This document shows positions 2,960-28,147 of a DNA stretch of 64,000 nucleotides, piece after piece. Both the position numbers and the translations under genes were made by a program. Position 1 is the first letter of the stretch; every line of letters begins with the position of its first letter. The notes under the pieces were generated by a model. That model ran no database searches. It saw only the letters and a list, made by a program, of their open reading frames with translations, and was not told the DNA's origin. The stretch lies in assembly GCA_903850425.1 (NCBI GenBank), contig CAINLR010000083.1, positions 28,444 to 92,443 on the forward strand, read 5' to 3'. This stretch comes from an uncultured Verrucomicrobia subdivision 3 bacterium. Lineage in GTDB: Bacteria > Verrucomicrobiota > Verrucomicrobiia > Limisphaerales > UBA11358.

Positions 2960-2990
2960 AAAAAAAGAGCCCGGACACTACTCCGGGCTC
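2960..2990 (-). terminator. Intrinsic terminator downstream of coaE and the long minus-strand gene run
   Basis: GAGCCCGGA/TCCGGGCTC 9-bp stem followed by T7 on the minus strand. Confidence 0.75.
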
Positions 2991-3108
2991 CTAAAACAAC
3001 ACTTAAATTCTTGCGTTGAGGTTGCACTGCCCTCAACGCAATCAGATTAACACATCGGGCGATTCTGGCTTGTCACCAGTTGTGGTTACAAAATGGGGAC
3101 AAGCTCGC

Positions 3109-3698: not shown

Positions 3699-6185
3699 TC
3701 ACGGACCAACCAAAGTCCGATAAAACCGCATTGGGAAGTTGGTGGAGTCGTAGCTGGTGAACGTGAATGGAATCAAATTCGTGGCGACCGGAACCCAAGG
3801 GCCGGTGACGAGATTGGTGGACGCCTGAACGATGGCGGATTGGCCCGCAGCACCCGTCACCGCCAACTGAAACGCGTGCGTGGCGGGATTATAGCTGGGC
3901 GTCAACGTCGGCGGCGTGATGATGCTGGAAACCAGCAGCGTGGCGATGCCATTATCATCATCCGGGTTCGGGTCACTGGTGGTGGCAGCAACACTCGCGT
4001 CATTGGTGAAGGTGCCGATGGCGTTGGCCAGAAAACTCAACGTCAGTTTCGCGCCGGTATTGATGGACAGATTACCCACCGACCAAGTCAGCACCGAACC
4101 GCTGATGGTGACGGAGCCAGCCGTGGCGTTAGAGGAAACCAGCGTCAGACCGGTGGGGGGCAGATTATCGCTGACCAGCACGTTGGTGGTGGAAGAAGGG
4201 CCGTAGTTGGTAACGGCCAGACTGACCGTCCAAAAGGTATTCGTGGCAATGGACGCACTGGCCGGCGTGACATAAAGCTGGTTGTCCGCCGCATAGCCCA
4301 CGGGATTGGCCGTGGTGAGATTGAGGAACCAGCCGTTGGAGATAATACCTGTATTGATGGCTGAATCATCTTGCACAAACAAGAACCAAGGACCATTGGG
4401 GTTGCCGCCATTCAAGGTGGCGAGCGTGGTGCCGTAAGGCGGACGGGGAGCCGAAACAACGACGACCGGCGGGACCGGGAGTGTGAGGTAGTTAATCAAA
4501 TTGGTGCCTTTGGGCGAGCCAAGACCAGTGGCAAGGTCATAACCCGGGACGGCAAAATAGTTGGTCGGACTGCCCGGCCAGGTATTGTCGCCGAGAACCA
4601 CATCGTTGAAAACAGTCGTGTAATTGGCGCTCCTGGCGAGATTGTAAATCGCCGGATTCAAAAATCCAATCGGCGGCCGGTTGCTGATGGCGGCCTGCTG
4701 GTTCACCAGCGCCATGAAGCCTGCCCAGAGCGGCGCGGCTGCACTAGTGCCGCCGCTCGCACCCGCCTGACCGTTTTCGGAAATGAGATATATTTCCGTG
4801 GCAGGCATGGCCACATCTGGAAAATTGCGACCAGTGGCGAATCCGTGGTTGGTAGTGGTTGCGAAGCCCTGCTGCCAAGCCGGCGCACCATAGATAAAGC
4901 TGACGCCGCCGCCACTGCCCCAGTCACCGCCTTGGCCGTTGTTGGGCGTGCGATCGTTCCAGACGGATTCCGAAACGAAATTCCCCGCCGAGTCCGTGGT
5001 CAACTTGGTGCCACCAACACTGGTAAGGTAAGCGTTAGCGCAAATGGCAAAGCCGCTATTTGGGCTGTCTGGTTGTCCTACCAACATAGCGTCGCTGTCT
5101 CCGGATGATTGGAAGAAACTCTGACCTTGCACAGCCATCTGCTGCAAAAGCTGGTTGATCGTCGCACTTGGCGCCCCCAAACTCCAAGAGCAACTCACTT
5201 GTTTGGCGGCATTGTCCGACGCAATCTGGCTCAGCACGACAACCGCGCGAAAAAAGGCTGGGTTTTCCTCATAGACGAGCAATTGGCTCAATCCAGGCGC
5301 CATTGAATTAGCCATTTCGATGTCCAGTTCAACTTCGCCTTCGCCACCAGTCATCGTCGGATTGCCATCAAATCCATCCAGCAAAATGTTGGTGATCGAA
5401 AGCGTGGGCAAGCCGGCCAACTGCTCATACGCCGCAATGTCGCTGGGAAAATAGCCGTCAAACTGGACCAAGGCGATCTTCTGGCCCGTGCCAGTCAGCG
5501 TCGTCCCGGGCACATAGGCTTTGCGAAAATCATAACCAATGAAACTGCCATCCGGAGCCGAACCCCCGACAAACGATTTTCCAGCCGGGGACTGCGCAGT
5601 CTTGGAACTCGGCTTGATAAAGGAATGCGGCTGAAAATAACTGCTCAAACCGCTGATATCCTGCACCGGCAAGCCCATCGGCACAGAAGGCTCGGTGTCC
5701 GGCGAGAAAAACAGGCGGCTCTCAGTGGGATGTTGATAGTTCTTTAGCGTAATCCCGAACGCGCGTTCCACGTCGGAAACCGCCCCGGTGATTTCAACCA
5801 CCATCCGGTTGGCGTGCGTGCGTGTCACGGTCAGTCCGTTTGCATTCGCAAAGTTGATCACCGCCTGTAGGTCGTTGGTCGTTGGCCCAAACTGTTCGGT
5901 GAACTGTTCGGTCGTCAGATATTGCCGGTAATTCGGACTGGCTGGATCAGTGATCTGCGACATGAGCAAATCCAGCCCTGCCTGGTTGCGCGTCGGCAAG
6001 CCGATGGCTAGGTGCAGGGCAGTCGCCGGGTCCAACGGACTGGTGGCGGTCAAAGTGCTCACCACCGCCGGCACATGTCCCGACAAGGTGGTGCGGCCAA
6101 CGACGGCCGCTGCCGAGCGACTGGCGAAGCCAGCCACCGCGATCAATCCGACGCCAACTAGCAATAAAGTCTTCCTCATATTCAT
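3699..6185 (-). CDS. Secreted S53 (sedolisin/kumamolisin) peptidase: signal peptide, pro-kumamolisin domain, catalytic domain, C-terminal half of a P-domain, DUF11-like domain, 'RFYR' tail domain
   Basis: Prodomain (L.L.I.L..RN...L......DP.SPNY.QYLT.EQF...FGPT), E-xxx-D (EGEVELD), SGD oxyanion motif, GGTSAAAPLWAG nucleophile, GYDLATGLGSP Ca site. Confidence 0.9.
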   Translation of the reverse strand: MNMRKTLLLVGVGLIAVAGFASRSAAAVVGRTTLSGHVPAVVSTLTATSPLDPATALHLAIGLPTRNQAGLDLLMSQITDPASPNYRQYLTTEQFTEQFGPTTNDLQAVINFANANGLTVTRTHANRMVVEITGAVSDVERAFGITLKNYQHPTESRLFFSPDTEPSVPMGLPVQDISGLSSYFQPHSFIKPSSKTAQSPAGKSFVGGSAPDGSFIGYDFRKAYVPGTTLTGTGQKIALVQFDGYFPSDIAAYEQLAGLPTLSITNILLDGFDGNPTMTGGEGEVELDIEMANSMAPGLSQLLVYEENPAFFRAVVVLSQIASDNAAKQVSCSWSLGAPSATINQLLQQMAVQGQSFFQSSGDSDAMLVGQPDSPNSGFAICANAYLTSVGGTKLTTDSAGNFVSESVWNDRTPNNGQGGDWGSGGGVSFIYGAPAWQQGFATTTNHGFATGRNFPDVAMPATEIYLISENGQAGASGGTSAAAPLWAGFMALVNQQAAISNRPPIGFLNPAIYNLARSANYTTVFNDVVLGDNTWPGSPTNYFAVPGYDLATGLGSPKGTNLINYLTLPVPPVVVVSAPRPPYGTTLATLNGGNPNGPWFLFVQDDSAINTGIISNGWFLNLTTANPVGYAADNQLYVTPASASIATNTFWTVSLAVTNYGPSSTTNVLVSDNLPPTGLTLVSSNATAGSVTISGSVLTWSVGNLSINTGAKLTLSFLANAIGTFTNDASVAATTSDPNPDDDNGIATLLVSSIITPPTLTPSYNPATHAFQLAVTGAAGQSAIVQASTNLVTGPWVPVATNLIPFTFTSYDSTNFPMRFYRTLVGP

Positions 6186-6202
6186 CTCTCAATTTTTTGT
6201 CA

Positions 6203-9200
6203 TCACGGGAAACTCTTGACCGGCAGATTTCCGGATGGCTTGTTCGTGCCGCTAATAATCTGGCCCGCCGTCGGCAGATTGGTCGCCGCCGCATCGTCAA
6301 AGGTCAAAGTGACATGGCTGACGGTGAACGTGCCGCCGGCATTGGCCATGATCAAGGTGTTTGATCCGTTCGGACCCACCACGAGTGCGCCAATATCCGC
6401 CGGCGCCGTGTGCGATAGGTTGGTCAGCGTGACCGTGGCCTTGACCAGGGAGCCGCCCACGCCACTCACATTGATCAGCGCCGGATACGGCGTGGCGTTG
6501 GTGTTGTCGTTGATGATAATCGCATTGGTGTTGGCAAATTTCTTCGTCCAAGTGCCGAGCGTGAAACCAAAGATCGCCGTGCCAATGTTGTTCGCGCCGT
6601 CCTGCAGCTTGAAGGTGGCGGCGATCTGCTGGTTGTTGGTGCCGCTGGCGGTAAAGGTGAAGGGACGGGAAACGGAGTGGCCTGCATACACCAGCGTGCC
6701 ATAATTCGCCGTCACCGGGTTGATCGGCGTCACGCCGTTGGTGGCCAGCAACGTGGCGTTAAGATTGTTGACATTCGTGCCGCCCGCGTCGCGCAGGCCG
6801 AACAGGACGGTCACCGTCTCGTTGGGATCAATGATGCCATTGGCCGCACCGGCATTGGTCTCGGAGAGTAATTGCGCCCCGGCGGCAATCACATAGCTGC
6901 CTGTATTGTCGTGGATGGTCAGCTTGGCCGCCGACGGCGAGAGCAGGACGCCATTCACGGCGTTGTTCAATTCCAGCAACACGGTCAGGTCCGGCTGCAC
7001 GGTGGTGGTGGCAATGATTGGCACACTGAAGGTGGCCACGGTCTGGCCGTTGGTGAAGACCAGCGTGCCGTTGGTCGCCACAAAGTTAAGCCCGCTGATC
7101 GCCGTGCCATTGGTGGCGACGAAATCCACCGTGGAGGTCGTGTTGGTGAAATCGGAGCGATAGACGGAGATCAACGCCGCGCCGCCGGTCTTGAGGACCG
7201 TGTAATTCGCGCCGGAGAAGCGGATGCCAGAATTGCTGTCAATGATCGTCACCGTCTGCACCGTGGGCGGGACGAGCCGGCCCGTGCCCGTTGGGTTGGA
7301 GAGACTGACGGTGAAGACATGGTTGCCACTCACGGCGCCGTTATTGATGATGGGCACGGTGAACGTCTGGGTGCTCACGCCATTGCTGAAGATCAAGGTG
7401 CCGCTGGTGGTGACATAGTCCGCACCGGCCGTGGCATGATTGGTCGCTGCGCCGTCGGCGGTGTTGTAGGTGACGGCGACCGGCTCGACGTTGGTGTTGG
7501 AACAAACCACGGTGACCACCAAGTTACCCGCGTTCTTAAGCACGGAAACACTGTTGGTAGTGAAGCTCAAACCCGCATCGTTGTCCTGCAAAATCACGGT
7601 GGTGATGCTCGGATTGCCCAATTGCACGCCGGGGGTGGGATTGGACAGGCCGACGGTGAACTGCAAATCGCCCGTCGCATTGGTGCTGTAAAGCAGCGGC
7701 ACCAGGATAACGGACTGGGAAGCCCCGTCGTTGAAGGTCAACGTCCCGCTGCTGGCGACGAAGTTGACGCCGGCCACCGCCGAACCATTGGTGGTGGAAT
7801 AGTTGATGGTGGTGGTGCCCACCGTGTTGTTGTAACGCAGCACATTGAGGGTGGCAAAGGGCAGCGTTTCATTGAAGGTATTGGTCGCCAAGGAGAACAC
7901 GATGCCGACGTTGGTGTTCAGAATCGTCACCGTGGCGTTGGACGGATTGAAGATCGAGGTGCCCAGCGATGCGTTGGTCAACTGCACAAAGAAGTAGGAG
8001 GTGGGTTCCACGGTGGCAGTGTTCAGCACTTGAACCTGGAAGGTCTTGACCATTTCCCCGTCCGCGAAGGACAACACGCCGTTGGTGGAAAAGTATTTCG
8101 CTCCGGCGACGGCTGTGCCATTGGCCGTGGCATAACCCACCGACACGATGCCCGCCGCGCCGTTGGTGCGCAGCACGGTCACCGTGAGGTTGGTCGAGCC
8201 GATGCCGCCCCCTTCGCTCACCACATAGTTCGTGGCCGAGAGTTCAAATGATCCCTTGGACTGCGTGCGATCCAGAATGGTCAGCAGCGCATTGGACGGG
8301 TTATTCATCATGGACCCGGTGGCATTGGTCAACTGGAGGGAGACCGTGCGGTCACCGTCGGAGATGCCATTGATGATGGGGACCATCACCGTCTGCACCG
8401 CCGAACCCGGCGCGAACGTGATCACTCCGTTGGTCACCGGCTGATAGTCCACGCCAACGACCGCCGTGCCATTGGAAGTGGTGTTGAACACCACCGTCGA
8501 AGTGCCATAGGTGGCCCCCGAGCGATTGATCGTGATCGGCGCATAGCCGTCCGGCACATTCGCCCCATACTTGGTGACCAAATAAGTGGCCGCCGAGAAA
8601 CTGATCGCGCTGTCAACATTGGTGATGGTCAGCAACGCCGTGGGTTGGTTGCCTCGCTCGCCCGGGGCCACTGGCGTCAAGGCCAGATTCACCGTCAAAT
8701 CGCCGTTGACGACCAAGTCATCCTGCACCGGGATGACAATGGTCCGCTGCACCTCGCCGGCGGCAAACACCAAGTTGGTCAGGACCGTGAAGTAGTTGGT
8801 CACGCTGGCGTGATCCGTATCCGCCTTGGCGGTGCCATCCGTGGTGGCGAAGGCGACATAGATATTACCCAAGCCGTTCGCGTTCGTGCCGCTGGTGCCG
8901 CCGGTGCGGTTCACCGTGATGAGGGCGTTGGTGCCATTCTCATTCGCGCCATAGTTGGCCGAAGAAAATTCAAACTCCCCGGAACCGCCGATGGAGCCGC
9001 CGTAGATGCGGGCCAGGTGCTCGTGCGACTCGCCGAAGTAGTGGGTAAAGCCGCCGCCAATGATGATCTTCTCGTTCGGCACATTGGTGGGATAACCCGT
9101 GATGGTGGCTTCTTGCACCACTACTGCGCCCACAAAGCTATCCGCGCCCACGCCGAAGTTAATCGTCGGGTCCACCGTGCCATCAGGATTCAAACGCGTG

Positions 9201-12200
9201 ATCCGGTTGCGGGTGACGCCGCTACAATGGGTGAACAACCCGCCCACTACTATCCGGCTGTCCGTCTGCACCGCAATGCTCAACACGGCGGCATCGGCAC
9301 CCAAGCCAGGATTAAAGGTGGTATCCGTCGAGCCATTCGCACTGTTCAAGCGGGCGATATGATTGAAGTAGGGGTTGCCATTGACACTGGTGAAGAGACC
9401 GCCGAGCAAAATCTGGCCGTCCAATTGGATTGTAATGGCGCGGACGGAATCATTGGCCGTCGCGTTGGTGAAGGTCAGGTCCACGGAACCATTCGCATTC
9501 AACCGCGCCACATGGTTGGCCGGAATGCCGTTCACCGCCGTAAAGTCGCCGCCGATCAGCAGCTTGCCGTCGCTTTGAACGGCCAGCGCATAGACCGTGC
9601 TGTTGGCACCCAGGCCACCGACATTGAACGTGGTGTCGGGCGTGCCGTCGTCATTCAAGCGGCCGATGCCGTTGACAATTTCGCCGTTGAGCAACGTGAA
9701 GTCGCCCGCAGCCAGAATCTTTCGATCGCTGCCAACAAAGGTTTCCGCCACGGCATACACCGGGTTGTCCGCGCCGGAACCCGGATTAAACAAACTGTCG
9801 AGTGAACCGTCATGATTCAGGCGGGCGATGCGGTTCATCACCACGCTGTTCAGGTTGGTGAAGTAGCCGCCCACGAGAATGCGCCCATCCGACTGGATGG
9901 CGATGGCCCGCACGGAACCATCCGCGCCCATGGTCGTAATCGGCAGGGAGAACGCCGCATCCAGCCCGCCATTCGCGTCCAGGCGCGCGAGGTGTTGACG
10001 GCGGACCCCGTTGGCCATCGTGAAATCACCACCCACCAACAACTGGTTGTCCGGCTGCAAGGCCAGGGCAAACACGGCGTCGTTGAAACCGGCAAAGTCA
10101 TTGTAAGTGACATCGGGCGAACCGGGCGTTTCATTCACGCCCTGCGGATCGCTCAACGTGGTATTGATAATGTTGAGCACGGCATTGCTCGGATTGCCCT
10201 GCGCATTCCACGGCGTGGCATTGCCCACGACCACGGCGTTGCTCAAAGAGAGATTCAAGGCGACCAGGCCATTGCTCGCTCCGGCCGCGATCGGCACGTT
10301 GAAATACTTGGTGACTTCCCCGTTGGTGAAGGTAAGCAAACCGGCGCTCGTGGTGTAGTTGACACCCGCCAGGGCCGTGTTGTCCACCGTGGTATAATTC
10401 ACCGCCACCGTGCCGGCATTACCACCGGAGCGCACGACCGGGATCAGTGCGAATCCGCCGTATTTCTTCACCGAGTAGGCCGCGCTGCTAAATTCCACCG
10501 TGCCGGGGAAGTCCGCGTTGACGATGTTCAAAACCGTATTGGTGCCGCCAAAGCCCAGCACCACGGCATTATTCGTGACTGAATTCAATACTCCGTTGGT
10601 CAGGCGCAGGTTCACAGTCAGATCCGGCGTGAACACGCCATCGTGCTTGACGGGGATGGACACGAACTTGGTGACGACTTCCCCGTTGGCCCAACTGATA
10701 TTAGTAGAGGTGCCGACATAGTTCAGTCCATTGGTGGCCGTGCCGTCGCTGGTGATCACCGTCACGCTCAGACTGCCTTGAGCCTGGCCGAGGCGGCTGA
10801 TGCCAATCAGCGCCGTCCCGTCGGTTTCATTGACGTTGTTGGTGCCTGACACGAAGCCAAGGTGGCCGTTTTTCCCATTGTTGTTGACGATGGTCAGCAC
10901 CGCATTGGTCAGGCCGAGCGTAGCTCCGCCCGCTGGTGTATAGATCCACAGATTGACCGTCTTGTCCGGCTGGGCGGTTGTGCCTTTGATTATCGGAATG
11001 GTAAACGTCTTGATGCTGTCGCTGTTCTGGAACGTCAGCGTGCCAGTCGCGTTGGTGTAGTCTATGCCATTAGTGGCGGAACCGTTGACGGTCACATAAC
11101 TCACCTGCACCACGCCGCCGGTGAAGTTGGTGCGAGTGATGGTGATGGTGGCGACGCCGCCATTCTGATTCACCACATACGTCGGCGCACTAAAGCTGAG
11201 GACACCCGGCTTGTAATTGTCGTCAATGATCGTCATCGCCGATGCATCCTGCCAGCCCAGCGCCGGTTCCAAGGGAATCTTTTCACCGCCGAGCAAGAAG
11301 CTCGATCCATCCGGTTTCGACACCGCCAGATTGGCGTTCTTATTGCCAGAGATATTGGTGGTGTTATTTATGTTAAGGTAAACATAAGGACTATTATTTG
11401 GCGGTAACCTGGTCGGAAGGGTCCGGTAGTTCGGACCATCGAAGGCCGGACTTATCATCCATTCATAGGACGGGCTTGCAGACCATAGAGTCGGCCAGAT
11501 CGGCGCCGTATAAACCGGCTGAATTGCGAAGTCATCCCCAGTGGCGATGCCTGGTCCGGGAGCCGCCGTGTTTGTGGAGAAAGTAACTGAAGCCGGCCCC
11601 AAGTTACCGTTGGTGCGCACCAGCGACACAAACAAGGTGCCGGCACTCTTGTCCACCGTGTATTTGTTGTAGGAAAGCGACATGTTGCCGGGGCCAGGCG
11701 TGCCGCCGCCGATCAGCCGCGCCACGTTGCTGCGCGGATGAATGTCTTTACGCGTAGACCCGCCGCCCACCCGGAGGAAGCCCCCGCCAATGATCACGTT
11801 CGTGGTGCCCGGTTCCACCGCAATGGCGTTCACAAAATTGCGGTGATTGCCTTGCGGATACAGCGCGGTATTCACCGCGTCCGGATTGTGATAGTGCGGA
11901 ATCAAGCCAGCAAACTGGTTATAGTAAGTATCCATGAAGCTGGTGTCCAAACTGCCATAGTCGAACAACCGCGCAATGCCCAGACGCCGGGTCTGGTTGT
12001 AAGTCGTGAAGTCGCCACCGATCAGTATCGTGCCATCCGGTTGCAAGGTGATGGCGGTGACCGAATCCGCTACAAACGTCACCGGATTGAAAGTGCCGGT
12101 GCCCGGATTGAAACTCGGATCCACCGAGCCATCTGCATTCAGGCGCAGGAGGCCGTTGTAACTGGCCAGTTCATAATAAGAAATCGCACCGCCGATGAGC

Positions 12201-15200
12201 AGTTTTCCATCATCCTGTAAAGCCATTGCAAAGATCGGATCCGTGAACCCGGTGTCCGCGTTGTAAGTGCCGATGCCGGGGTCAAACGCCGGGTCCACCG
12301 TGCCATCCACATTCAACCGCGCCACGCCGCCGCGCAATATGCCGGCCACATGCTCAAATTCGCCGCCAATGTTGACCCGGCCCAGCGGATCCACCACCAC
12401 AGAGTTCACGGTCGCCGCCACCACTTTTCCGTCCACTACTTTCGTGGGCCCAACGCCTGGATTGAAACTCAGATCCAGCGAACCGTCCGCATTCAACCGC
12501 GCGATGGAGTTGCAATTAGTCCCGTTGACCGACGTGAAATAGCCTGCGATGACCACCTGGCCATTGGTCTGGAGCGACATGGACCAGACCATCGCATTCG
12601 TGCCGCGCACGCCCAGGCCCGTGCCCAGCGTGCCATTCATGAAGGTGCCGTCCACCGAGCCATCCGTATTCAAGCGGGCCACGTGGTAGCGATTCGCCCC
12701 GTTGAAGGAGGTGAATTTACCAGCAATGAGAATTTTTCCATCCGGCTGCACCGCCAGGGCCGCGATGAAATCATTGGCCCCGCTGTTAGGTGCCGCCAGG
12801 AAAGTGGTGTCCTGATAACCATTCGCCAACAGCCGCACAATGCGGTTGTAGGGATTGGAATCAAAGGAGATGAAGCTGCCGGCCACAATGGCTTTGCCAT
12901 CGGGCTGTTCCGCCACGGCATACACCGTGCCACCATTACCCGTCGAACTGCCGCTGACACCGCCATCGGTGCCGGGGTAATTTAAGAAGGGCGGCACTGA
13001 TTCCGACACGACATCCTTGTTCCAGCAACGATCCACCGCGCCAGCAGGCTGCTGGGTGCAGGTGCGATCATCAAATAGTTCCGTCAGGGTGGCATAGTTG
13101 AGCAGACCAACTTCAACTCCGGGCGTCGTTCCACTCGGTTTAGGGAGGGGATTGAACAACTGAATCCACATGTCCGCATTATTCTCGACTAATCCGTTGT
13201 TTAATATCGGAATCGTAATGGATTTTGGATTGTAATCGTAGGCTCCCCACGACAAGGTGCCGGAAACCGGCGTGTAATCGCTATTGGGGTTGGCATAATC
13301 CGACCCAGCCTGCAGCGGGAAGGTGTTGGCCGGTCCAAAACCACCAGTGAACGTCGAAGGTGGATCCCCACCGCCATTCAAGCCCGGAGTTGGGTCCATA
13401 ACATAGTCCACCGTCACTGACGCAGTTGGATCGCCACCGATGCGATAGACACTGATGATCGCGACGCCGCCAGACTCATCCTTGTCCACCCGGAAGGTCG
13501 AACGTTCAAAACAGAACGTGCCGACCGATGCTGGTTGTTTATATGCGGAAGAACTCCCACTATACTGTGAAGCATAGGCGTTGATGCGGCTACTGTGGTC
13601 GCCGCTGATGGTGGGCGTGATCAAATCGGGGGTTTCCAAGTCATCCAACCGAATGTTCTGGAGTTTCACCGTGATCACGCTGGAGATGTAAGGCAGCACG
13701 TTGCCATCGGGGCTACGCACCTGACTCACCGGCACCAAGACGTCTTTACTCATTTCATAGTCATCAAAGAACAACGTATTGGAGACGACGCCGAAGGCAC
13801 CCGAAGCCGGGATGATCTGAAGCACCGGAACCGGGAGATAGCGGTAAACACTGGAAGCGGTAATGGTAATATTGCTGTTGGCATCCACCGAGTTGGTCAC
13901 ACCGAGCGAGAAGGTGCCAATGGGCGGCAGGTTAGTGGGCACTGGATCGAGGATGCCCAAGCCGGAACTAAAGCTGTTGTAGTTGGCGGCGTTGTTGCTG
14001 CTGGACCAGACAAAGTTGGTGCGGCCCAGCGACGACGTCGTGTAGAGTAATTGGTTCGTGATCAGCGCGCCGTTGGTGTAATACGAATTGGTGAGATTCA
14101 GAAAACTCACCACGAAGTTGGTCCGAAAGTAATTGGTGTAAAGCTGCGCCCCACCCAGGAGAAGCGAGGAGATGAAGGTATTGGAGCCGTAAAAATTAGT
14201 CACCGCTTCATGCACCCACAGATTGGTATAGTTACCATAAACGACTGAGTTATTGGTAAAACTCGTGCCGTTCCCACCCCCCGATCCGTATATATCATTC
14301 GTGGTCGCGTAGCTAAAGATGTTGTTGAGCGTGATATTGGTCGCGACCCCCGCAATCCGGTTCGTGACTCCGGTGAAATAATTGGTGAACGCCGGGAACT
14401 TGGTCGGGATCGGCGTGAGCGCGCCTTGCACCAAAGGAAAGGTCGTTCCGTAGAGCGTGTTGGAGGATATCTGGCCGTAGATAGTGGTAACAAAATTGGT
14501 GAGTGCCCCCCACACAGGATAGGTGACGTAGTTGCCATAAATAAACGACTGGAAATAGTTAGTATAGACGATGAAGTTCTCCGAAGTATTGGTCGTGGAA
14601 GTCACTCCGTTCGTGTCGGTAAAGGTAATGGACACATTCGTGCCATAGTAATTGGTCAGAAAGGTGTTGGTATAGGTCTCATTGACGGTATAGAAATCCA
14701 CCAGCACCCGGCCGCTGGACCCATTCGTGCGCGTGACCGTTACCCGCGCCCCGAGCACACTTTGACTGACAGTGCCCCCGTCCTGACTGATCGGCGCGCT
14801 GGAATCCAAATCGCTGACATAATAGGCGGCCGAAGTGAAGGTAAAGTCGCCCGAACGGATCGTCGGTGGGACAACTGTAGCCATGGTCCAATTCAGCAAA
14901 AAGTTACCGGTCGGAGGCGTCGCCCCCGCCCAACCTTCCACACAAAAATAATAGGTTGTGCCGGCGACCGCCGTGAACGTCAAAACACTCTGCGGTGCAT
15001 TGCCACCCGCAATGTCATCATCATTGACAGCCAAATTGGTCAAACTCCCACCACACAGGCCATTGGTGGTGGTCCAAACCGACAGCACCGTGTCAAAATC
15101 GCTACCCAGAGTATCCAAGGTTACGGTGCCGCTATCCGTGGCGGTCCAAGCATACCAGACGGAATTGGTGACGGAATCTGGTCCGTAGGTCGGATCTATC

Positions 15201-15433
15201 AGACTATTGGTCTCGCACGGCGCTTCCAAGGTGGAGCCCACGTTGCTGCCATTGGTCGTTCCCGACGCGCCAGTGATGATCGTGGCGCTGGCAAAGTTAT
15301 CGTTGACCGGCTGCGCCTGGGCGAGGCTGGCCACCAGTCCGATGCCCGCCACCAAGGCCAGCTTCACGCTGCCGGCAGTGAACACACGCCCGGCCAACGG
15401 CAGGCTCGCAAGTATATTTAGAATCGTTTTCAC
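6203..15433 (-). CDS. Giant (3076 aa) secreted adhesin-like protein: PPC-like N-terminal domain, about 12 Calx-beta repeats, two delta-60 (beta-propeller) repeat clusters, ending in half a P-domain
   Basis: Signal peptide ...SLAQA|QPVNDNF. Repeated F....Y.V...G...V.V.R..G..G...V.Y.T..GTA..G..Y....GTL.F..GE units. Repeated A.A.QPDGKILI.G.F...NG......ARLN.DGS.D..F units. Confidence 0.9.
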   Translation of the reverse strand: MKTILNILASLPLAGRVFTAGSVKLALVAGIGLVASLAQAQPVNDNFASATIITGASGTTNGSNVGSTLEAPCETNSLIDPTYGPDSVTNSVWYAWTATDSGTVTLDTLGSDFDTVLSVWTTTNGLCGGSLTNLAVNDDDIAGGNAPQSVLTFTAVAGTTYYFCVEGWAGATPPTGNFLLNWTMATVVPPTIRSGDFTFTSAAYYVSDLDSSAPISQDGGTVSQSVLGARVTVTRTNGSSGRVLVDFYTVNETYTNTFLTNYYGTNVSITFTDTNGVTSTTNTSENFIVYTNYFQSFIYGNYVTYPVWGALTNFVTTIYGQISSNTLYGTTFPLVQGALTPIPTKFPAFTNYFTGVTNRIAGVATNITLNNIFSYATTNDIYGSGGGNGTSFTNNSVVYGNYTNLWVHEAVTNFYGSNTFISSLLLGGAQLYTNYFRTNFVVSFLNLTNSYYTNGALITNQLLYTTSSLGRTNFVWSSSNNAANYNSFSSGLGILDPVPTNLPPIGTFSLGVTNSVDANSNITITASSVYRYLPVPVLQIIPASGAFGVVSNTLFFDDYEMSKDVLVPVSQVRSPDGNVLPYISSVITVKLQNIRLDDLETPDLITPTISGDHSSRINAYASQYSGSSSAYKQPASVGTFCFERSTFRVDKDESGGVAIISVYRIGGDPTASVTVDYVMDPTPGLNGGGDPPSTFTGGFGPANTFPLQAGSDYANPNSDYTPVSGTLSWGAYDYNPKSITIPILNNGLVENNADMWIQLFNPLPKPSGTTPGVEVGLLNYATLTELFDDRTCTQQPAGAVDRCWNKDVVSESVPPFLNYPGTDGGVSGSSTGNGGTVYAVAEQPDGKAIVAGSFISFDSNPYNRIVRLLANGYQDTTFLAAPNSGANDFIAALAVQPDGKILIAGKFTSFNGANRYHVARLNTDGSVDGTFMNGTLGTGLGVRGTNAMVWSMSLQTNGQVVIAGYFTSVNGTNCNSIARLNADGSLDLSFNPGVGPTKVVDGKVVAATVNSVVVDPLGRVNIGGEFEHVAGILRGGVARLNVDGTVDPAFDPGIGTYNADTGFTDPIFAMALQDDGKLLIGGAISYYELASYNGLLRLNADGSVDPSFNPGTGTFNPVTFVADSVTAITLQPDGTILIGGDFTTYNQTRRLGIARLFDYGSLDTSFMDTYYNQFAGLIPHYHNPDAVNTALYPQGNHRNFVNAIAVEPGTTNVIIGGGFLRVGGGSTRKDIHPRSNVARLIGGGTPGPGNMSLSYNKYTVDKSAGTLFVSLVRTNGNLGPASVTFSTNTAAPGPGIATGDDFAIQPVYTAPIWPTLWSASPSYEWMISPAFDGPNYRTLPTRLPPNNSPYVYLNINNTTNISGNKNANLAVSKPDGSSFLLGGEKIPLEPALGWQDASAMTIIDDNYKPGVLSFSAPTYVVNQNGGVATITITRTNFTGGVVQVSYVTVNGSATNGIDYTNATGTLTFQNSDSIKTFTIPIIKGTTAQPDKTVNLWIYTPAGGATLGLTNAVLTIVNNNGKNGHLGFVSGTNNVNETDGTALIGISRLGQAQGSLSVTVITSDGTATNGLNYVGTSTNISWANGEVVTKFVSIPVKHDGVFTPDLTVNLRLTNGVLNSVTNNAVVLGFGGTNTVLNIVNADFPGTVEFSSAAYSVKKYGGFALIPVVRSGGNAGTVAVNYTTVDNTALAGVNYTTSAGLLTFTNGEVTKYFNVPIAAGASNGLVALNLSLSNAVVVGNATPWNAQGNPSNAVLNIINTTLSDPQGVNETPGSPDVTYNDFAGFNDAVFALALQPDNQLLVGGDFTMANGVRRQHLARLDANGGLDAAFSLPITTMGADGSVRAIAIQSDGRILVGGYFTNLNSVVMNRIARLNHDGSLDSLFNPGSGADNPVYAVAETFVGSDRKILAAGDFTLLNGEIVNGIGRLNDDGTPDTTFNVGGLGANSTVYALAVQSDGKLLIGGDFTAVNGIPANHVARLNANGSVDLTFTNATANDSVRAITIQLDGQILLGGLFTSVNGNPYFNHIARLNSANGSTDTTFNPGLGADAAVLSIAVQTDSRIVVGGLFTHCSGVTRNRITRLNPDGTVDPTINFGVGADSFVGAVVVQEATITGYPTNVPNEKIIIGGGFTHYFGESHEHLARIYGGSIGGSGEFEFSSANYGANENGTNALITVNRTGGTSGTNANGLGNIYVAFATTDGTAKADTDHASVTNYFTVLTNLVFAAGEVQRTIVIPVQDDLVVNGDLTVNLALTPVAPGERGNQPTALLTITNVDSAISFSAATYLVTKYGANVPDGYAPITINRSGATYGTSTVVFNTTSNGTAVVGVDYQPVTNGVITFAPGSAVQTVMVPIINGISDGDRTVSLQLTNATGSMMNNPSNALLTILDRTQSKGSFELSATNYVVSEGGGIGSTNLTVTVLRTNGAAGIVSVGYATANGTAVAGAKYFSTNGVLSFADGEMVKTFQVQVLNTATVEPTSYFFVQLTNASLGTSIFNPSNATVTILNTNVGIVFSLATNTFNETLPFATLNVLRYNNTVGTTTINYSTTNGSAVAGVNFVASSGTLTFNDGASQSVILVPLLYSTNATGDLQFTVGLSNPTPGVQLGNPSITTVILQDNDAGLSFTTNSVSVLKNAGNLVVTVVCSNTNVEPVAVTYNTADGAATNHATAGADYVTTSGTLIFSNGVSTQTFTVPIINNGAVSGNHVFTVSLSNPTGTGRLVPPTVQTVTIIDSNSGIRFSGANYTVLKTGGAALISVYRSDFTNTTSTVDFVATNGTAISGLNFVATNGTLVFTNGQTVATFSVPIIATTTVQPDLTVLLELNNAVNGVLLSPSAAKLTIHDNTGSYVIAAGAQLLSETNAGAANGIIDPNETVTVLFGLRDAGGTNVNNLNATLLATNGVTPINPVTANYGTLVYAGHSVSRPFTFTASGTNNQQIAATFKLQDGANNIGTAIFGFTLGTWTKKFANTNAIIINDNTNATPYPALINVSGVGGSLVKATVTLTNLSHTAPADIGALVVGPNGSNTLIMANAGGTFTVSHVTLTFDDAAATNLPTAGQIISGTNKPSGNLPVKSFP

Positions 15434-24254: not shown

Positions 24255-25132
24255 ATCAACTCCGACTGCCGCTCACGGCATTGTTCTTCCAGCGCCGCCG
24301 CCAGACCTTTGAAACCCCAGCCGGCAAACAGGCCGCGCAATATATTTCGGTCCGGCGACTTCGGTTTCAGTTTCTCCGGCACCCATTCACAGGGCACTTC
24401 GTGCAGTCGCACGAGGGCCAGATTCCGACGCACATTCTCCGCCGCGCCGAGCAAGGCCGTCCGCAAGCGTTCGGATTTCACTTCAGCCAGCCGCGCCAAC
24501 AAAATTTCCACAGAACCAAACTGGTTCAACAATTCAGCCGCCGTCTTGGGCCCGATGCCGGCCACGCCGGGGATGTTATCCACCGCGTCACCCATCAACG
24601 CCAGCCAGTCGGCCACCTGCTCGGGCTCAACCCCCGCTTTCGCGTGGACTTGTGCGCGCGTCCAAACCGCGCCTGTCTTGTCGTTCGGATTCAACAAACC
24701 AATTTGATCCGAAACCAACTGCATAAAATCTTTATCCGCACTGGCAATGACCACCGGCCAGCCGTCTGCCGCCGCGCGCCGCGCCAGACAGGCGATGTAA
24801 TCATCCGCCTCGATCCCGTCGCCGCAAAATTCGGCCATACCCGCCGCCGCCAGATACTTTCCGATCTCGTCAAACTGCGGCCGCAAGTCGTCCGGCATTT
24901 CCGGCCGCTGCGCCTTGTAGGCCGGCAAAGCGGCCATCCGGGCCGCGCTCAAACCGCCATCCCAAACCACGATCAGGTGCGTCGGCTCCAAGGCCGCGCG
25001 CATTTTCTCGAGCATTTTTACAAAACCAAATATGGCATTCGTCGGCTGGCCGGAAGGCGAACGCAACTCGCGGATGGCGTGAAAGGCACGGTAGGCGTAG
25101 GCGTGTCCGTCAACAATCAGCAGCCGGTTCAC
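24251..25132 (-). CDS. Stand-alone 5'-3' exonuclease / flap endonuclease (PolA N-terminal-like)
   Basis: LLIVDGHAYAYRAF, TNAIFGF, YKAQR..MPDDL, EADD.I..LA, SADKDF.QL, GDAVDNIPGV.GIGPKTA (H3TH). No polymerase domain follows. Confidence 0.92.
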   Translation of the reverse strand: MNRLLIVDGHAYAYRAFHAIRELRSPSGQPTNAIFGFVKMLEKMRAALEPTHLIVVWDGGLSAARMAALPAYKAQRPEMPDDLRPQFDEIGKYLAAAGMAEFCGDGIEADDYIACLARRAAADGWPVVIASADKDFMQLVSDQIGLLNPNDKTGAVWTRAQVHAKAGVEPEQVADWLALMGDAVDNIPGVAGIGPKTAAELLNQFGSVEILLARLAEVKSERLRTALLGAAENVRRNLALVRLHEVPCEWVPEKLKPKSPDRNILRGLFAGWGFKGLAAALEEQCRERQSELI

Positions 25133-25797
25133 GGCTTCACTGCCAGGGCCGCCGCGCTGACTTTCTGCGAACCAACTTCCTTCACCACGCCATTGCCTTC
25201 CGACTGCTCGGGCGTGGTGGACTGCGCAAACGGCATTTCGTCGGGGGAATGCACGCGGTTGCCGGCCGGATCCACAATCGTCGCCGTGACAAAGATCATC
25301 AGGTTTTTCTTGACCGCGTGCTTGCTCTGGCTGCGGAACAAACCGCCCACCAACGGAAGATCACCCAAGACCGGCACCTTGTCCTTGGTGCTTTGCTGTT
25401 GCGAGGAAATCAACCCGCCAATCACCACGGTCTGGCCGTCCCAGACGTTCACCGTGGTCACGACCTGCCGCACTGTGAAGTTCGGCAGAATCGTCGGCAA
25501 CTGCACGACGTTCAGATTGCCGGTGACATTGGGGATATTCGGTGGCGCATCGTAGCCATTAAAATCGGTCATGGACGGAATGAGCGCCATGTTGATGGTG
25601 AATCCGTCGGACAAAACATACGGCACCACATCCAGAATCGGCCCGGTTTCCACGGATTGCGTGGTGGGCGTGATCGCGGAAGTTCCGGGATTGATCTGTT
25701 GGACTTGCGCCTGTAGCGACGGCGCCGCGACCAGACCACCGAGCGCCAGCGCGACGACTGCCGTTAGCCGAAGTTGATTTGCAGAATTGATTTTCAT
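25129..25797 (-). CDS. Secretin, C-terminal part, encoded as a separate gene with its own signal peptide
   Basis: GAGG RBS, then MKINSANQLRLTAVVALALGGLVAAPSLQA|Q, then secretin core strands TQSVETGPILDVVP...DGQTVVIGGL...KVPVLGDLPLVGGLFRS...LMIFVTATIVD. Confidence 0.88.
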   Translation of the reverse strand: MKINSANQLRLTAVVALALGGLVAAPSLQAQVQQINPGTSAITPTTQSVETGPILDVVPYVLSDGFTINMALIPSMTDFNGYDAPPNIPNVTGNLNVVQLPTILPNFTVRQVVTTVNVWDGQTVVIGGLISSQQQSTKDKVPVLGDLPLVGGLFRSQSKHAVKKNLMIFVTATIVDPAGNRVHSPDEMPFAQSTTPEQSEGNGVVKEVGSQKVSAAALAVKP

Positions 25798-25816
25798 GTT
25801 GCCTCGTTTCAAGAAA

Positions 25817-28147
25817 TTATTGGCCGGCACCATTGCCACCGCCATTGACATTGCCCGTTTGTGCCGAACTGCCCTGCTGGAAGTTCAAGCCCGTGATGAT
25901 GGTCACGACCTGAGACGCCCGCATTTGGGTCTGGCGTCCGCTCGTGGTGGTGACTTCAGGTTCCGCCAAGGTTTCAAACCCGGTGCGTTGTTCAAGCGCG
26001 TGCAAGGTCACCTGGAAATTCGGGTCCGTCAAAATGCCCGTGATCGTGCCCAGCGCTGGCGCGGAATTACGCAGACCGCCTGTGAGCAACTGGTCGCCCG
26101 CGGAACCAGGGATTAGATTGGCGGCGGTATTGCCGGGAAACGCCCCCAGCGGATTGGCGGCCGAAGTGGGCACGTTAAGCGAGGGTGAACTGCCACCGGT
26201 GCCGACCACCTGGCCACCCATGTTAAACTGCCCCATGGACCAGTTGAAACCCAAAGCCTTGTCATCGGTTTGTTGCACTTCAATGAAGCGTGACTTGATA
26301 TGGACCTGTGGCGCGACTTCGTTCAACATCGCAATGGCCCGCTCAATGGTGTCCAAATCCTGCTCCGTTGCTTTGACGAGGAGTTTGCCCAACCGGTCAT
26401 TAAAGAAAACAGACTTGCCGGGCGGGTTTTGCAAATTCACACCCAGCGCGGTGAAGAACGACCGAGCCAACTCACTGGGCGTCGCGGCCGAGGTCTGCGT
26501 GGTAATATAATTTATTCCACCTTGGTTTTGACCTTGACCACCTTGACCACCGCCACCACCGGTTCCACCACCAACTCCCCCCGCAGCACCGCCGTTCAAG
26601 ATGCTGCCGCCACCTTGCCCGCCACTACCGCCGCCGCCGCCGCCGCCGCCGCTTTGGCCTTGGTTACGAAGCTGTCCGCCACCGGCAAAGGGATTCACCA
26701 CCCCAACCACGGCGCCGCTGCTTTGACCGTTTTGACCACCGCCACCGCCACCGCCACCGCCGCCGCCACCGCCACCGCCACCGCCGCCATTTTGGGAGGA
26801 GCCACCGAAGCTGGTCGCCCCGACACTCTCAAGGCCGGAATAGAACGTGTTCGGATCAACCTTAAATATGCGGGTGAAAAGCTGGGGGGATTCCTCAGCT
26901 TTGGCGGAAAAGACAACGGCAAATTCTTGCACCGAGTATTTGAGCGGGTGATCCGCCACCAGCGTGATGGCATCGAGCACGTCGGCAAGCCGCACATCGG
27001 TCAGGGTGAGCTTGATTTGGACGGCAGCCACATCCACCGCTTCCGGAGCGCTGGCACCTGCGCCGGGCCCAGCGGCCGGCAACCCGGTGGCAGGATCAAT
27101 GGCGGGTGCCGGTGCGCCCCGACCTTCGGTCGCTCCTGGAAAGCCACCGCCCGCACCAAACTGGCCAACCGGTGCGGCCACTGGCTGCCCTGACTTGTCG
27201 GCATTTGGATTGATGATAAAATTAATGCCCTTGCGATCCACATCCCGCAGTTTGGATTGCTCGGTCAAATTGCGGAGCACTTCGGAGAGCGGCAGGCCTT
27301 CGTAGGCAATATTGTCCAGATGAATGCGGTCCAACTTGGCGATGATCGCCTGCCGGCCGGGCCCGGTCCAAACCTGATTGTTGGTGGCGTAGGGGTTGTT
27401 GAACTTGGGCAAATTAGCCCCGGAAACAGGCGCAATCCACTGCTTTTCAACATTCGCCATGCGATCCTGCGTGTCCACGGTATGCTGGGAGGTTTCCCGG
27501 ACAAATTTGGCCTGCTTGATGAGGTTGAGATAATAATAGGCACCGGTATTGTCGGGATCCAAGCGAATGGCTTGGGCCAGTTTGGCCTCGGCTTCTTCAA
27601 GCTTGCCCATTTCATAAAACAGTTTGCCGTCCTGCACGAGCGTCCCGGCTTCCGTTTTTTGCGCGTTAATTTGCGGCACCTGTTCCACGACCGCGAGACT
27701 GGGATACCGGCCCTTGTTGACAGCCAGCATCTGATCATTCTGCGCCTTGAAGGCGAGGGCAGCCGGATTTTTCGGGTCTGCTTTGAGCACCTGCGCGACT
27801 TGGGTGTTGGCTTCGCGCAAATCACCCCGGCTCTGGGCGTCGCGGGCTAGCGCCAAGCGGGTGGCGGCCAAACCGGCTTTGGCCTGCGCGGTCTCCACCG
27901 CGATGCCGGAGCCGATCTGTTCGGCTAACGCGCAGCATTCCTGGTAAAGTTTGGCGGCGGCGACCGTGTCGCCTTTCTGCGCGGCGGCTTGCGCCTCGGC
28001 CAGTTTTCCGCGGAGCACGACCGTGTAGGATTGGCGCAACACGGCTTCGTTGACCGCCAGCGCGGCAGAATTATCTTGCGCAGTCAGGATGCTGGGCGAC
28101 ACCAGCACGGCGGCAAGTCCGAGTGAAAAGAGAGCGGCTTTGGTCAT
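25817..28147 (-). CDS. Secretin (PilQ/GspD, Amuc_1098-like), N-terminal part: signal peptide, TPR, N-domains with a Gly-rich loop, first half of the secretin core
   Basis: TPR (GKLFYEMGKLEEAEAKLAQAIRLDPDN), N3 domain (FNDRLGKLLVKATEQDLDTIE), PQVHIKSRFIEV, TLAEPEVTTTSGRQ. Stops before the GxxLxVxP strand. Confidence 0.88.
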   Translation of the reverse strand: MTKAALFSLGLAAVLVSPSILTAQDNSAALAVNEAVLRQSYTVVLRGKLAEAQAAAQKGDTVAAAKLYQECCALAEQIGSGIAVETAQAKAGLAATRLALARDAQSRGDLREANTQVAQVLKADPKNPAALAFKAQNDQMLAVNKGRYPSLAVVEQVPQINAQKTEAGTLVQDGKLFYEMGKLEEAEAKLAQAIRLDPDNTGAYYYLNLIKQAKFVRETSQHTVDTQDRMANVEKQWIAPVSGANLPKFNNPYATNNQVWTGPGRQAIIAKLDRIHLDNIAYEGLPLSEVLRNLTEQSKLRDVDRKGINFIINPNADKSGQPVAAPVGQFGAGGGFPGATEGRGAPAPAIDPATGLPAAGPGAGASAPEAVDVAAVQIKLTLTDVRLADVLDAITLVADHPLKYSVQEFAVVFSAKAEESPQLFTRIFKVDPNTFYSGLESVGATSFGGSSQNGGGGGGGGGGGGGGGGGGQNGQSSGAVVGVVNPFAGGGQLRNQGQSGGGGGGGGSGGQGGGSILNGGAAGGVGGGTGGGGGQGGQGQNQGGINYITTQTSAATPSELARSFFTALGVNLQNPPGKSVFFNDRLGKLLVKATEQDLDTIERAIAMLNEVAPQVHIKSRFIEVQQTDDKALGFNWSMGQFNMGGQVVGTGGSSPSLNVPTSAANPLGAFPGNTAANLIPGSAGDQLLTGGLRNSAPALGTITGILTDPNFQVTLHALEQRTGFETLAEPEVTTTSGRQTQMRASQVVTIITGLNFQQGSSAQTGNVNGGGNGAGQ
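26540..26790. repeat. Low-complexity (GGC/GGT)n tracts encoding poly-Gly in the secretin
   Basis: Long CCGCCA/CCGCCG triplet runs translating to GGGGGGGGGGGGGGGG and GGQG motifs. Confidence 0.85.

Follow-up and report, generated by a model that had tools for sequence, protein, structure and literature searches.

The P-domain (PF01483), an eight-stranded jelly-roll beta-sandwich, is known from the proprotein convertases of the kexin and furin type and from secreted bacterial subtilases. In the stretch of DNA considered here, a window of 64,000 nucleotides (nt) from an uncultured Verrucomicrobia subdivision 3 bacterium (assembly GCA_903850425.1, contig CAINLR010000083.1, positions 28,444 to 92,443), a domain of this family appears to be divided between two adjacent genes, one for a giant secreted adhesin (the giant) and one for an S53 peptidase (sedolisin). 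The proposed reading is that an S53 cassette was inserted into the P-domain of the giant and that the two halves re-associate in trans as a docking module; taken as a whole, it is given a probability of about 0.6. Membership of the P-domain family is suggested by contiguous relatives of the split domain that pass the Pfam cut-off, by the hallmark motifs ...TFDD..., G.W.L.V.D and GW.L.L, which are kept, and by the position of the domain, which likewise lies directly behind a subtilase-clan catalytic domain. It differs from described P-domains in being encoded by two genes, with the protease holding only the last two or three strands, in the protease being an S53 sedolisin and not an S8 enzyme, and in an extra insert of ~12 residues that marks this subfamily at the site of the break.

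Several other systems offer partial parallels. In the donor-strand complementation of chaperone-usher and type V pili, a secreted incomplete beta-sandwich is completed in the periplasm or at the surface by strands of another polypeptide, as is proposed here. Pili build a polymer by passing a single strand from one subunit to the next of the same kind, with the aid of a chaperone and an usher or, for type V, of a protease step, whereas the present case would link two different proteins in a 1:1 ratio through two or three strands of a domain that was formerly contiguous; no chaperone or usher was detected among the neighbouring genes scanned with Pfam. Split inteins (DnaE) and 'fractured genes' (PMC2677866) also show fission inside one structural domain, with both fragments conserved and a specific re-association presumed. 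They differ from the present pair, which has no Hint or intein domain (no Pfam match in the giant or the S53 protein) and no splicing chemistry, and whose downstream fragment opens with a signal peptide; the intervening piece is moreover a functional-type protease still attached to one fragment, and both fragments are predicted to be exported separately by the Sec route. LapA of Pseudomonas is likewise a repeat adhesin of several thousand residues paired with one specific protease, LapG, with possible control of surface retention. LapG, however, is a periplasmic cysteine protease that acts on the N-terminal retention module of LapA and shares no domain with it, and neither protein is homologous to the giant or to the S53 protein. 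The characterised S53 enzymes (kumamolisin, sedolisin and TPP1; MEROPS S53) have the same pro-domain and catalytic fold and the same conserved Glu, Asp, Asp and Ser, but none of them has a C-terminal P-domain fragment, a CLIPPER domain or a sorting tail, or an adhesin as its partner. As principles, fission of a gene followed by reassembly of its products and the filling-in of an unfinished beta-sandwich with strands from a second protein are already known. What is new is that one beta-sandwich is shared out between a giant adhesin and a protease through the insertion of the front end of the protease gene, in a form conserved across a diverse clade; the searchable literature yielded nothing relevant on split P-domains or on the pairing of a sedolisin with an adhesin in Verrucomicrobia.

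The giant is encoded by a minus-strand open reading frame (ORF) of 3076 amino acids (aa) at 6203-15433 and is a secreted Calx-beta/delta-60 (DUF5122) repeat protein, with nine Calx-beta (459 bits) and twelve DUF5122 (446 bits) repeats detected by Pfam. Its C-terminus reads ...KPSGNLPVKSFP (...TLTFDDAAATNLPTAGQIISGTNKPSGNLPVKSFP in a longer view, with ...ISGTNKPSGNLPVKSFP as the last residues) and is followed by TGA TGA, so that the protein stops inside a P-domain-like beta-sandwich. The S53 ORF begins 17 nt past this stop, in a frame different from that of the giant, and encodes in order a signal peptide, a Pro-kuma_activ domain, the catalytic domain, a Pro/Val linker, the C-terminal piece of the P-domain, a DUF11 domain and a tail. 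Behind the catalytic domain its sequence reads ...LPVPPVVVVSAPRPPYGTTLATLNGGNPNGPWFLFVQDD...NGWFLNLTTANPVG, the stretch that follows the Pro/Val linker being SAPRPPYGTTLATLNGGNPNGPWFLFVQDDSAINTGIISNGWFLNLTTANPVG, and continues with DUF11 and a tail of the type ...PMRFYRTLVGP. The giant has no such RFYR tail, although its unsplit relatives carry one. An earlier sequence-only reading had described the end of the giant and the make-up of the next gene in these terms, and ORF prediction, Pfam and alignment with contiguous domains confirmed both descriptions together with the coordinates, which are collected in Table 1.

Joined together, the part in the giant (N-half) and the part in the S53 protein (C-half) can be aligned over their full length with contiguous domains of this genome and of many relatives. 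The contiguous orthologues and paralogues, which align with the window halves at 48-59% identity, score 31-36 bits on the Pfam P_proprotein profile (PF01483; gathering cut-off 21 bits), and canonical P-domain copies in the same proteins score 54 bits. The P_proprotein match in one contiguous giant, P0227, runs across the split site. The N-half keeps D12, P57, F81, D83 and F111, which are invariant in contiguous P-domains, and the C-half keeps the family-invariant N132, G133, W135, L137, D141, G148, I150 and W154; the positions that are invariant among S53 C-halves are the same as among contiguous P-domains (W135, L137, D141, W154 and others). An alignment of the joined halves with the contiguous copies and with canonical P-domains sets the break precisely between ...FP and SAP..., without the loss of a residue. 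The site is within the ~12-residue Pro-rich insert, which separates the F of the L..F.G motif of canonical P-domains from the G.W.L.V.D strand. These comparisons indicate, beyond what chance would give, that the two pieces belong to one domain.

The survey covered a sample of 151 genomes from 107 genera of the order. The contiguous P-domain-DUF11 module was found in giant ORFs of 84 genomes, and the S53-attached form in the genus of the window and in one other family. Unsplit orthologous giants were identified in sister lineages (P0227, L031, L033, L034 and L035, the last four representing four other families of the order), and in all five the alignment shows an unbroken domain, reading ...KPTxxxPVxxFP/SPAPxxPY...NPNGxWxLYVxDD... 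(slash at the position of the break) and continuing with DUF11 and the tail. The giant P0227 is a protein of 3132 aa with the same Calx-beta/DUF5122 architecture; it contains the unbroken ...SGTNKPTTYTPVATFPSPAPAAPYATNLATFAGSNPNGVWSLYVIDDSPGNMGIISNGWVLNITSANVV, followed by two DUF11 domains and the tail.

A maximum-likelihood tree constructed from the 420 residues before the break placed all 33 sampled split giants within one clade (100/98), with the contiguous giants outside it branching in the order P0227 and L031, then L035, then L033 and L034. Since the split giants form one clade, the tree shows a single old fission: the split happened once, as an ancient event and not as a recent insertion. 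The best non-S53 matches of the S53 C-half and its DUF11 domain were the C-termini of the sister giants, namely L031 (55%) and then L035 (47%), and the S53 gene therefore carries the former C-terminus of the giant. As these matches follow the same order as the tree of the giants, both sides of the break are traced to one ancestral contiguous gene. Insertion of an S53 cassette into the P-domain loop would be the simplest event, and it is well supported by these comparisons; the insertion proposed in the sequence-only reading is thus upheld by the contiguous sister giants, the monophyly of the split clade and the kinship of the S53 C-half.

The same reading had pointed to LPV codon triplets at both junctions, CTGCCGGTC at 6218-6226 and CTCCCGGTC at 4473-4481. 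The match is real (8/9 identical), and LPV is a conserved motif at the end of the giants (45 of 97). As it is present in just two of 103 S53 linkers, where P-(I/V)-I-S-A-P is the shared sequence, the microhomology was ruled out as a target-site or junction relic, and, given the age of the event, coincidence is the best explanation of the match in this genome.

The arrangement itself is maintained with little variation. Of the 120 best matches to the giant, 97 end at the same position, 95 in ...FP and two in ...FY, and the C-half lies right after the catalytic domain in 120/120 S53 orthologues, which are 50-65% identical overall. Giant and S53 gene were adjacent in every pair locus examined (~20, comprising 17 loci from genomes or metagenome-assembled genomes (MAGs), two from other families or species and the P0144 metagenome locus). 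At these loci, which belong to Limisphaerales/Verrucomicrobia subdivision 3 MAGs from lakes and bogs, the giant ends in ...FP (once FH), the S53 gene starts anywhere from an overlap to 25 nt after it and coaE usually comes next. In mean identity to the window S53 protein, the C-half (0.67) exceeds the catalytic domain (0.60), DUF11 (0.54) and the linker (0.32), and as the best-conserved segment of the protein it has virtually no indels. Conservation of the N-half (0.58, almost no gaps) equals that of the domains next to it in the giant. These alignment statistics show that both halves are under strong purifying selection, and the C-half, a last-strand piece of ~53 residues, cannot bury its conserved tryptophans alone.

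Structure prediction was carried out with AlphaFold2 (AF2) on a single chain in place of a two-chain prediction. At three MAG loci (L009-L011), the giant and the S53 gene happen to share a frame, with a single TGA between them, and for L009 this TGA was read as Trp, giving a chain of 959 residues with the N-half, the S53 part, the C-half and the rest (input alignment of 109 rows). The mean predicted local distance difference test (pLDDT) score of the read-through chain was 84, with the N-half at ~70-90. Seven strands were modelled in the N-half of this orthologue (residues 21-23, 34-38, 44-57, 63-68, 74-79, 87-95 and 111-114) and two or three in the C-half, which with the N-half present had pLDDT values of 68, 78, 82, 74, 84 and 66 per ten residues and strands of 9, 3 and 8 residues. 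In a control with the same S53 protein and the same S53 alignment, and without the N-half, the C-half fell to 43, 47, 43, 46, 38 and 35 with two strands of four residues each. All other S53 regions kept their confidence in this control, the catalytic and pro-domains remaining above 90. The model thus orders the S53 piece only when the piece from the giant is present, which would be consistent with direct contact between them.

On this basis the following course of events is proposed. The C-terminal end of the ancestral giant surface protein would have consisted of a P-domain followed by a DUF11/CLIPPER domain and the RFYR tail. Within the Limisphaerales (Verrucomicrobia subdivision 3), one lineage would then have received a cassette, running from a stop codon and a start through signal peptide and pro-domain to the S53 catalytic domain, in the Pro-rich loop between strands six and seven of the P-domain. 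Two Sec-exported proteins would have resulted: a giant ending in an incomplete, seven-strand beta-sandwich, and a sedolisin that bears, past a flexible linker, the two or three missing strands together with the CLIPPER and tail domains. Once both proteins are exported, the strands of the sedolisin would complete the sandwich of the giant in trans by strand complementation, and the non-covalent heterodimer would set the protease at the C-terminal end of the giant. Docking may also provide the giant with the CLIPPER-plus-tail module that forms the C-terminus of ~60 other secreted proteins in the genome. Re-association is favoured because of the co-occurrence and adjacency of the pair, the exact ...FP end, the conservation of the C-half and the disorder-to-order switch in AF2, so that the re-association in trans suggested by the sequence-only reading gains indirect support; we infer the physical association of the halves itself, its site and the part that the protease would play there (processing, release or display).

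A number of points weigh against re-association. The contact between the halves is deduced from a shift in confidence and not from observed contacts, the modelled chain is artificial (TGA as Trp, signal peptide retained), AF2 may assemble any recognisable fold, and the confidence of the C-half is moderate (68-84), not high. Neither half alone is matched significantly by Pfam or NCBIfam, and the window halves, when fused artificially, score 18 bits on P_proprotein, under the cut-off of 21. A profile of the joined and contiguous domains searched against PDB sequences gave no true match, just a spurious one to L18 (E ~0.06), so that no solved structure related by sequence was found in this search. 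Foldseek on the read-through model returned the sedolisin part only and gave no information on the discontinuous domain. Finally, that the tail acts as a sorting signal is likewise a deduction, made from its position.

It should also be considered that the insertion left no more than an evolutionary scar, with pieces that no longer interact: the N-piece would be a stub or fold by itself, the C-piece would be a mere spacer and adjacency would follow from co-transcription. This is regarded as unlikely. It would fit with Pfam seeing no domain in either half and with the fair confidence (70-90) at which AF2 models the N-half. A spacer, however, should not be the best-conserved segment of the protein, free of indels and well above the adjoining linker, nor would it retain exactly the core residues of contiguous P-domains; an end at ...FP would not stay fixed in 97/120 diverged orthologues, and disorder of the C-half is predicted wherever the N-half is missing.

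Residues E283, D287, D363 and S481 (the Ser-Glu-Asp triad and the oxyanion Asp) are invariant among 74 S53 orthologues, and the window protein contains the motifs GEVELDIEM, SGDSD and GGTSAAAP. Foldseek with the model of an orthologue gave pro-kumamolisin (1t1e, E 1.4e-38, TM 0.85) and TPP1 (3ee6, E 1.3e-29). With the pro-domain, the catalytic residues and the modelled sedolisin fold of MEROPS S53 all present, the protease part is a standard sedolisin. In kexin and furin, folding and activity of the catalytic domain depend on the P-domain. By analogy, the split domain might be a conditional folding or activation device, in which the sedolisin is stable or active only once the C-terminus of the giant completes the P-domain, confining proteolysis to the giant for its maturation or release, comparable to the action of LapG on LapA. 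The intact and invariant catalytic residues are compatible with this, as are the place of the C-half directly behind the catalytic domain, which is that of the P-domain in proprotein convertases, and the repeated linkage of giants and S53 units (P0144 and P0138 have a second S53 at the N-terminus of the giant). Yet the catalytic and pro-domains are modelled at pLDDT >90 without the N-half, and S53 peptidases generally need no P-domain, kumamolisin and sedolisin being without one, so a device of this kind is judged quite improbable.

That the split is an artefact or a product of decay (through an error in assembly or sequencing, a pseudogene, or a single protein produced by stop-codon read-through or frameshifting) is extremely improbable: the stop of the giant is TGA in 17/18 loci and the S53 gene is in its frame in 6/18, but the window junction is reproduced without differences in independent lake-metagenome contigs, the arrangement recurs in >100 diverged orthologues, the S53 protein has its own signal peptide in all of them, and the S53 frame relative to the giant (0, 1 and 2 in 6, 5 and 7 of 18 orthologous loci) is evenly spread, with a spacing from overlap to 25 nt, which excludes conserved recoding. 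A single chain produced by read-through or frameshifting was rejected on these frame statistics, and an assembly artefact on the independent contigs. The remaining locus has TAA; the prevalence of TGA despite the variable frame and spacing may simply be codon usage.

Beyond insertion and docking, the split P-domain could serve as a mutual checkpoint, a speculative extension that we consider doubtful. The giant would be sorted or anchored only after capturing the protease strands and, with them, the CLIPPER-plus-tail address tag, and the protease would be positioned, and perhaps stabilised or activated, only on the C-terminus of the giant. Such a two-protein 'split-tag' docking for surface display would belong to an uncharacterised verrucomicrobial export pathway. 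In this checkpoint the interface might be covalently locked, as in the neighbouring isopeptide-forming CLIPPER fold. DUF11 now bears the name CLIPPER, and it is described as an isopeptide domain of the CnaA-like type (PMC12617251).

The tail (...RFYRxxxxP) was without a match in Pfam or NCBIfam. A hidden Markov model (HMM) of the S53 tail matched ~65 ORFs in the genome, in 61 of which the match lay within 12 residues of the C-terminus (mostly 0-6). As the extreme C-terminus of ~60 large ORFs, the tail looks like an uncharacterised sorting or anchor domain. The suggestion in the sequence-only reading that the protease lends this domain to the giant is plausible from the distribution of the tail and its absence from the giant.

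Table 1. Coordinates of the two genes, the split P-domain and the associated domains within the window.
Feature	Coordinates	Strand	Basis
Giant protein gene; signal peptide, PPC-like N-terminal domain, without C-terminal tail domain	6203..15433	-	ORF + Pfam
N-terminal two thirds of P-domain-like beta-sandwich, giant residues ~2961-3076, ends ...KPSGNLPVKSFP	6206..6553	-	alignment to first 111 columns of contiguous P-domains
Split site; TGA of the giant, second in-frame TGA opening the 17-nt spacer (6186-6202), S53 start in another frame	6186..6205	-	
S53 (sedolisin) pre-pro-peptidase gene, 828 aa, holds rest of split domain	3699..6185	-	ORF + Pfam
Sec-type signal peptide of S53, residues 1 to ~27 (...SRSAAA/VVG, slash at putative cleavage site)	6105..6185	-	sequence; low-confidence helix in models
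Pro-kumamolisin activation (pro) domain, residues 47-173	5667..6047	-	Pfam PF09286, 102.9 bits
S53 catalytic domain, residues ~200-562; E-x3-D, SGD and GTS(A)AAP motifs intact	4500..5588	-	invariant residues + fold match
Variable Pro/Val/Gly-rich linker, residues 563-577, holds second LPV (4473-4481)	4455..4499	-	mean identity 0.32, length varies among orthologues
C-terminal third of split P-domain, S53 residues 578-630, SAPRPPYG...NPNGPWFLFVQDD...NGWFLNLTTANPVG	4296..4454	-	conservation + alignment + AF2
DUF11/CLIPPER domain, residues 640-749	3939..4268	-	Pfam PF01345, 64.1 bits (cut-off 24.6)
C-terminal tail domain, ~75 aa, ends ...FPMRFYRTLVGP; candidate sorting/anchoring module	3702..3923	-	tail HMM; modelled beta-sandwich, pLDDT ~80-89

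Fission within one small beta-sandwich, with both fragments under selection in separately exported proteins, is rare. If the proposed docking is correct, the pair would be a natural counterpart of engineered split-domain tags (SpyCatcher type, split GFP), and the ~50-residue piece with its ~115-residue partner would represent a new orthogonal protein-docking pair. It would also show how a tail-less adhesin of 3000 residues, from abundant uncultured freshwater Verrucomicrobia, gains a sorting or anchor module and a dedicated protease, and would make the role of the widespread ...RFYR C-terminal domain, and that of a secretin-linked surface-protein locus in the phylum, accessible to study. The phylogeny provides a clean, datable case of a functional domain that entered the loop of another in the form of a complete gene start.

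Some variation on the pairing of giant and protease was observed. In P0144 (L028 316-12360) and P0138, the second S53 unit at the N-terminus of the giant comprises a signal peptide, a pro-domain and a catalytic domain and is fused in front of the PPC-like domain; these giants still end in ...FP and are followed by an 830-aa S53 protein with the C-half and then by coaE. The gene next to the contiguous P0227 (L027 15487-21399) does not encode an S53 protein but a 2386-aa M36 (fungalysin) peptidase with P-domain, DUF11 and tail modules of its own. Across this order, a protease gene seems to be a regular partner of the giants. In L004 (1440-4035; G018:C8) the S53 gene is broken into two overlapping frames of 397 aa and 534 aa, representing either a frameshift pseudogene or a MAG sequencing error.

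In the window, the housekeeping gene coaE lies downstream of the S53 gene, and three more large secreted proteins are encoded upstream of the giant. A cluster for a PilQ-type secretin and PilM is located further upstream, beyond a 5'-3' exonuclease gene. The neighbouring genes scanned with Pfam comprised coaE, a TMEM260-like protein, unknown proteins, the 5'-3' exonuclease and, further upstream, the PilQ-type secretin with PilM. Within the region 25129-28147, the Secretin domain is represented in a 240-aa ORF (25129-25851) by its C-terminal part alone (profile positions 38-169 of 169), and in the 776-aa ORF just before it Pfam detects only TPR repeats. Towards the N-terminus of the giant itself, residues ~40-150 (15100-15330; NDNF...VWYAWTA...FDTVLSVW) resemble a domain of the pre-peptidase C-terminal (PPC) type. 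PPC domains usually come after secreted proteases, and in P0144 the PPC-like domain does come after an S53 domain.

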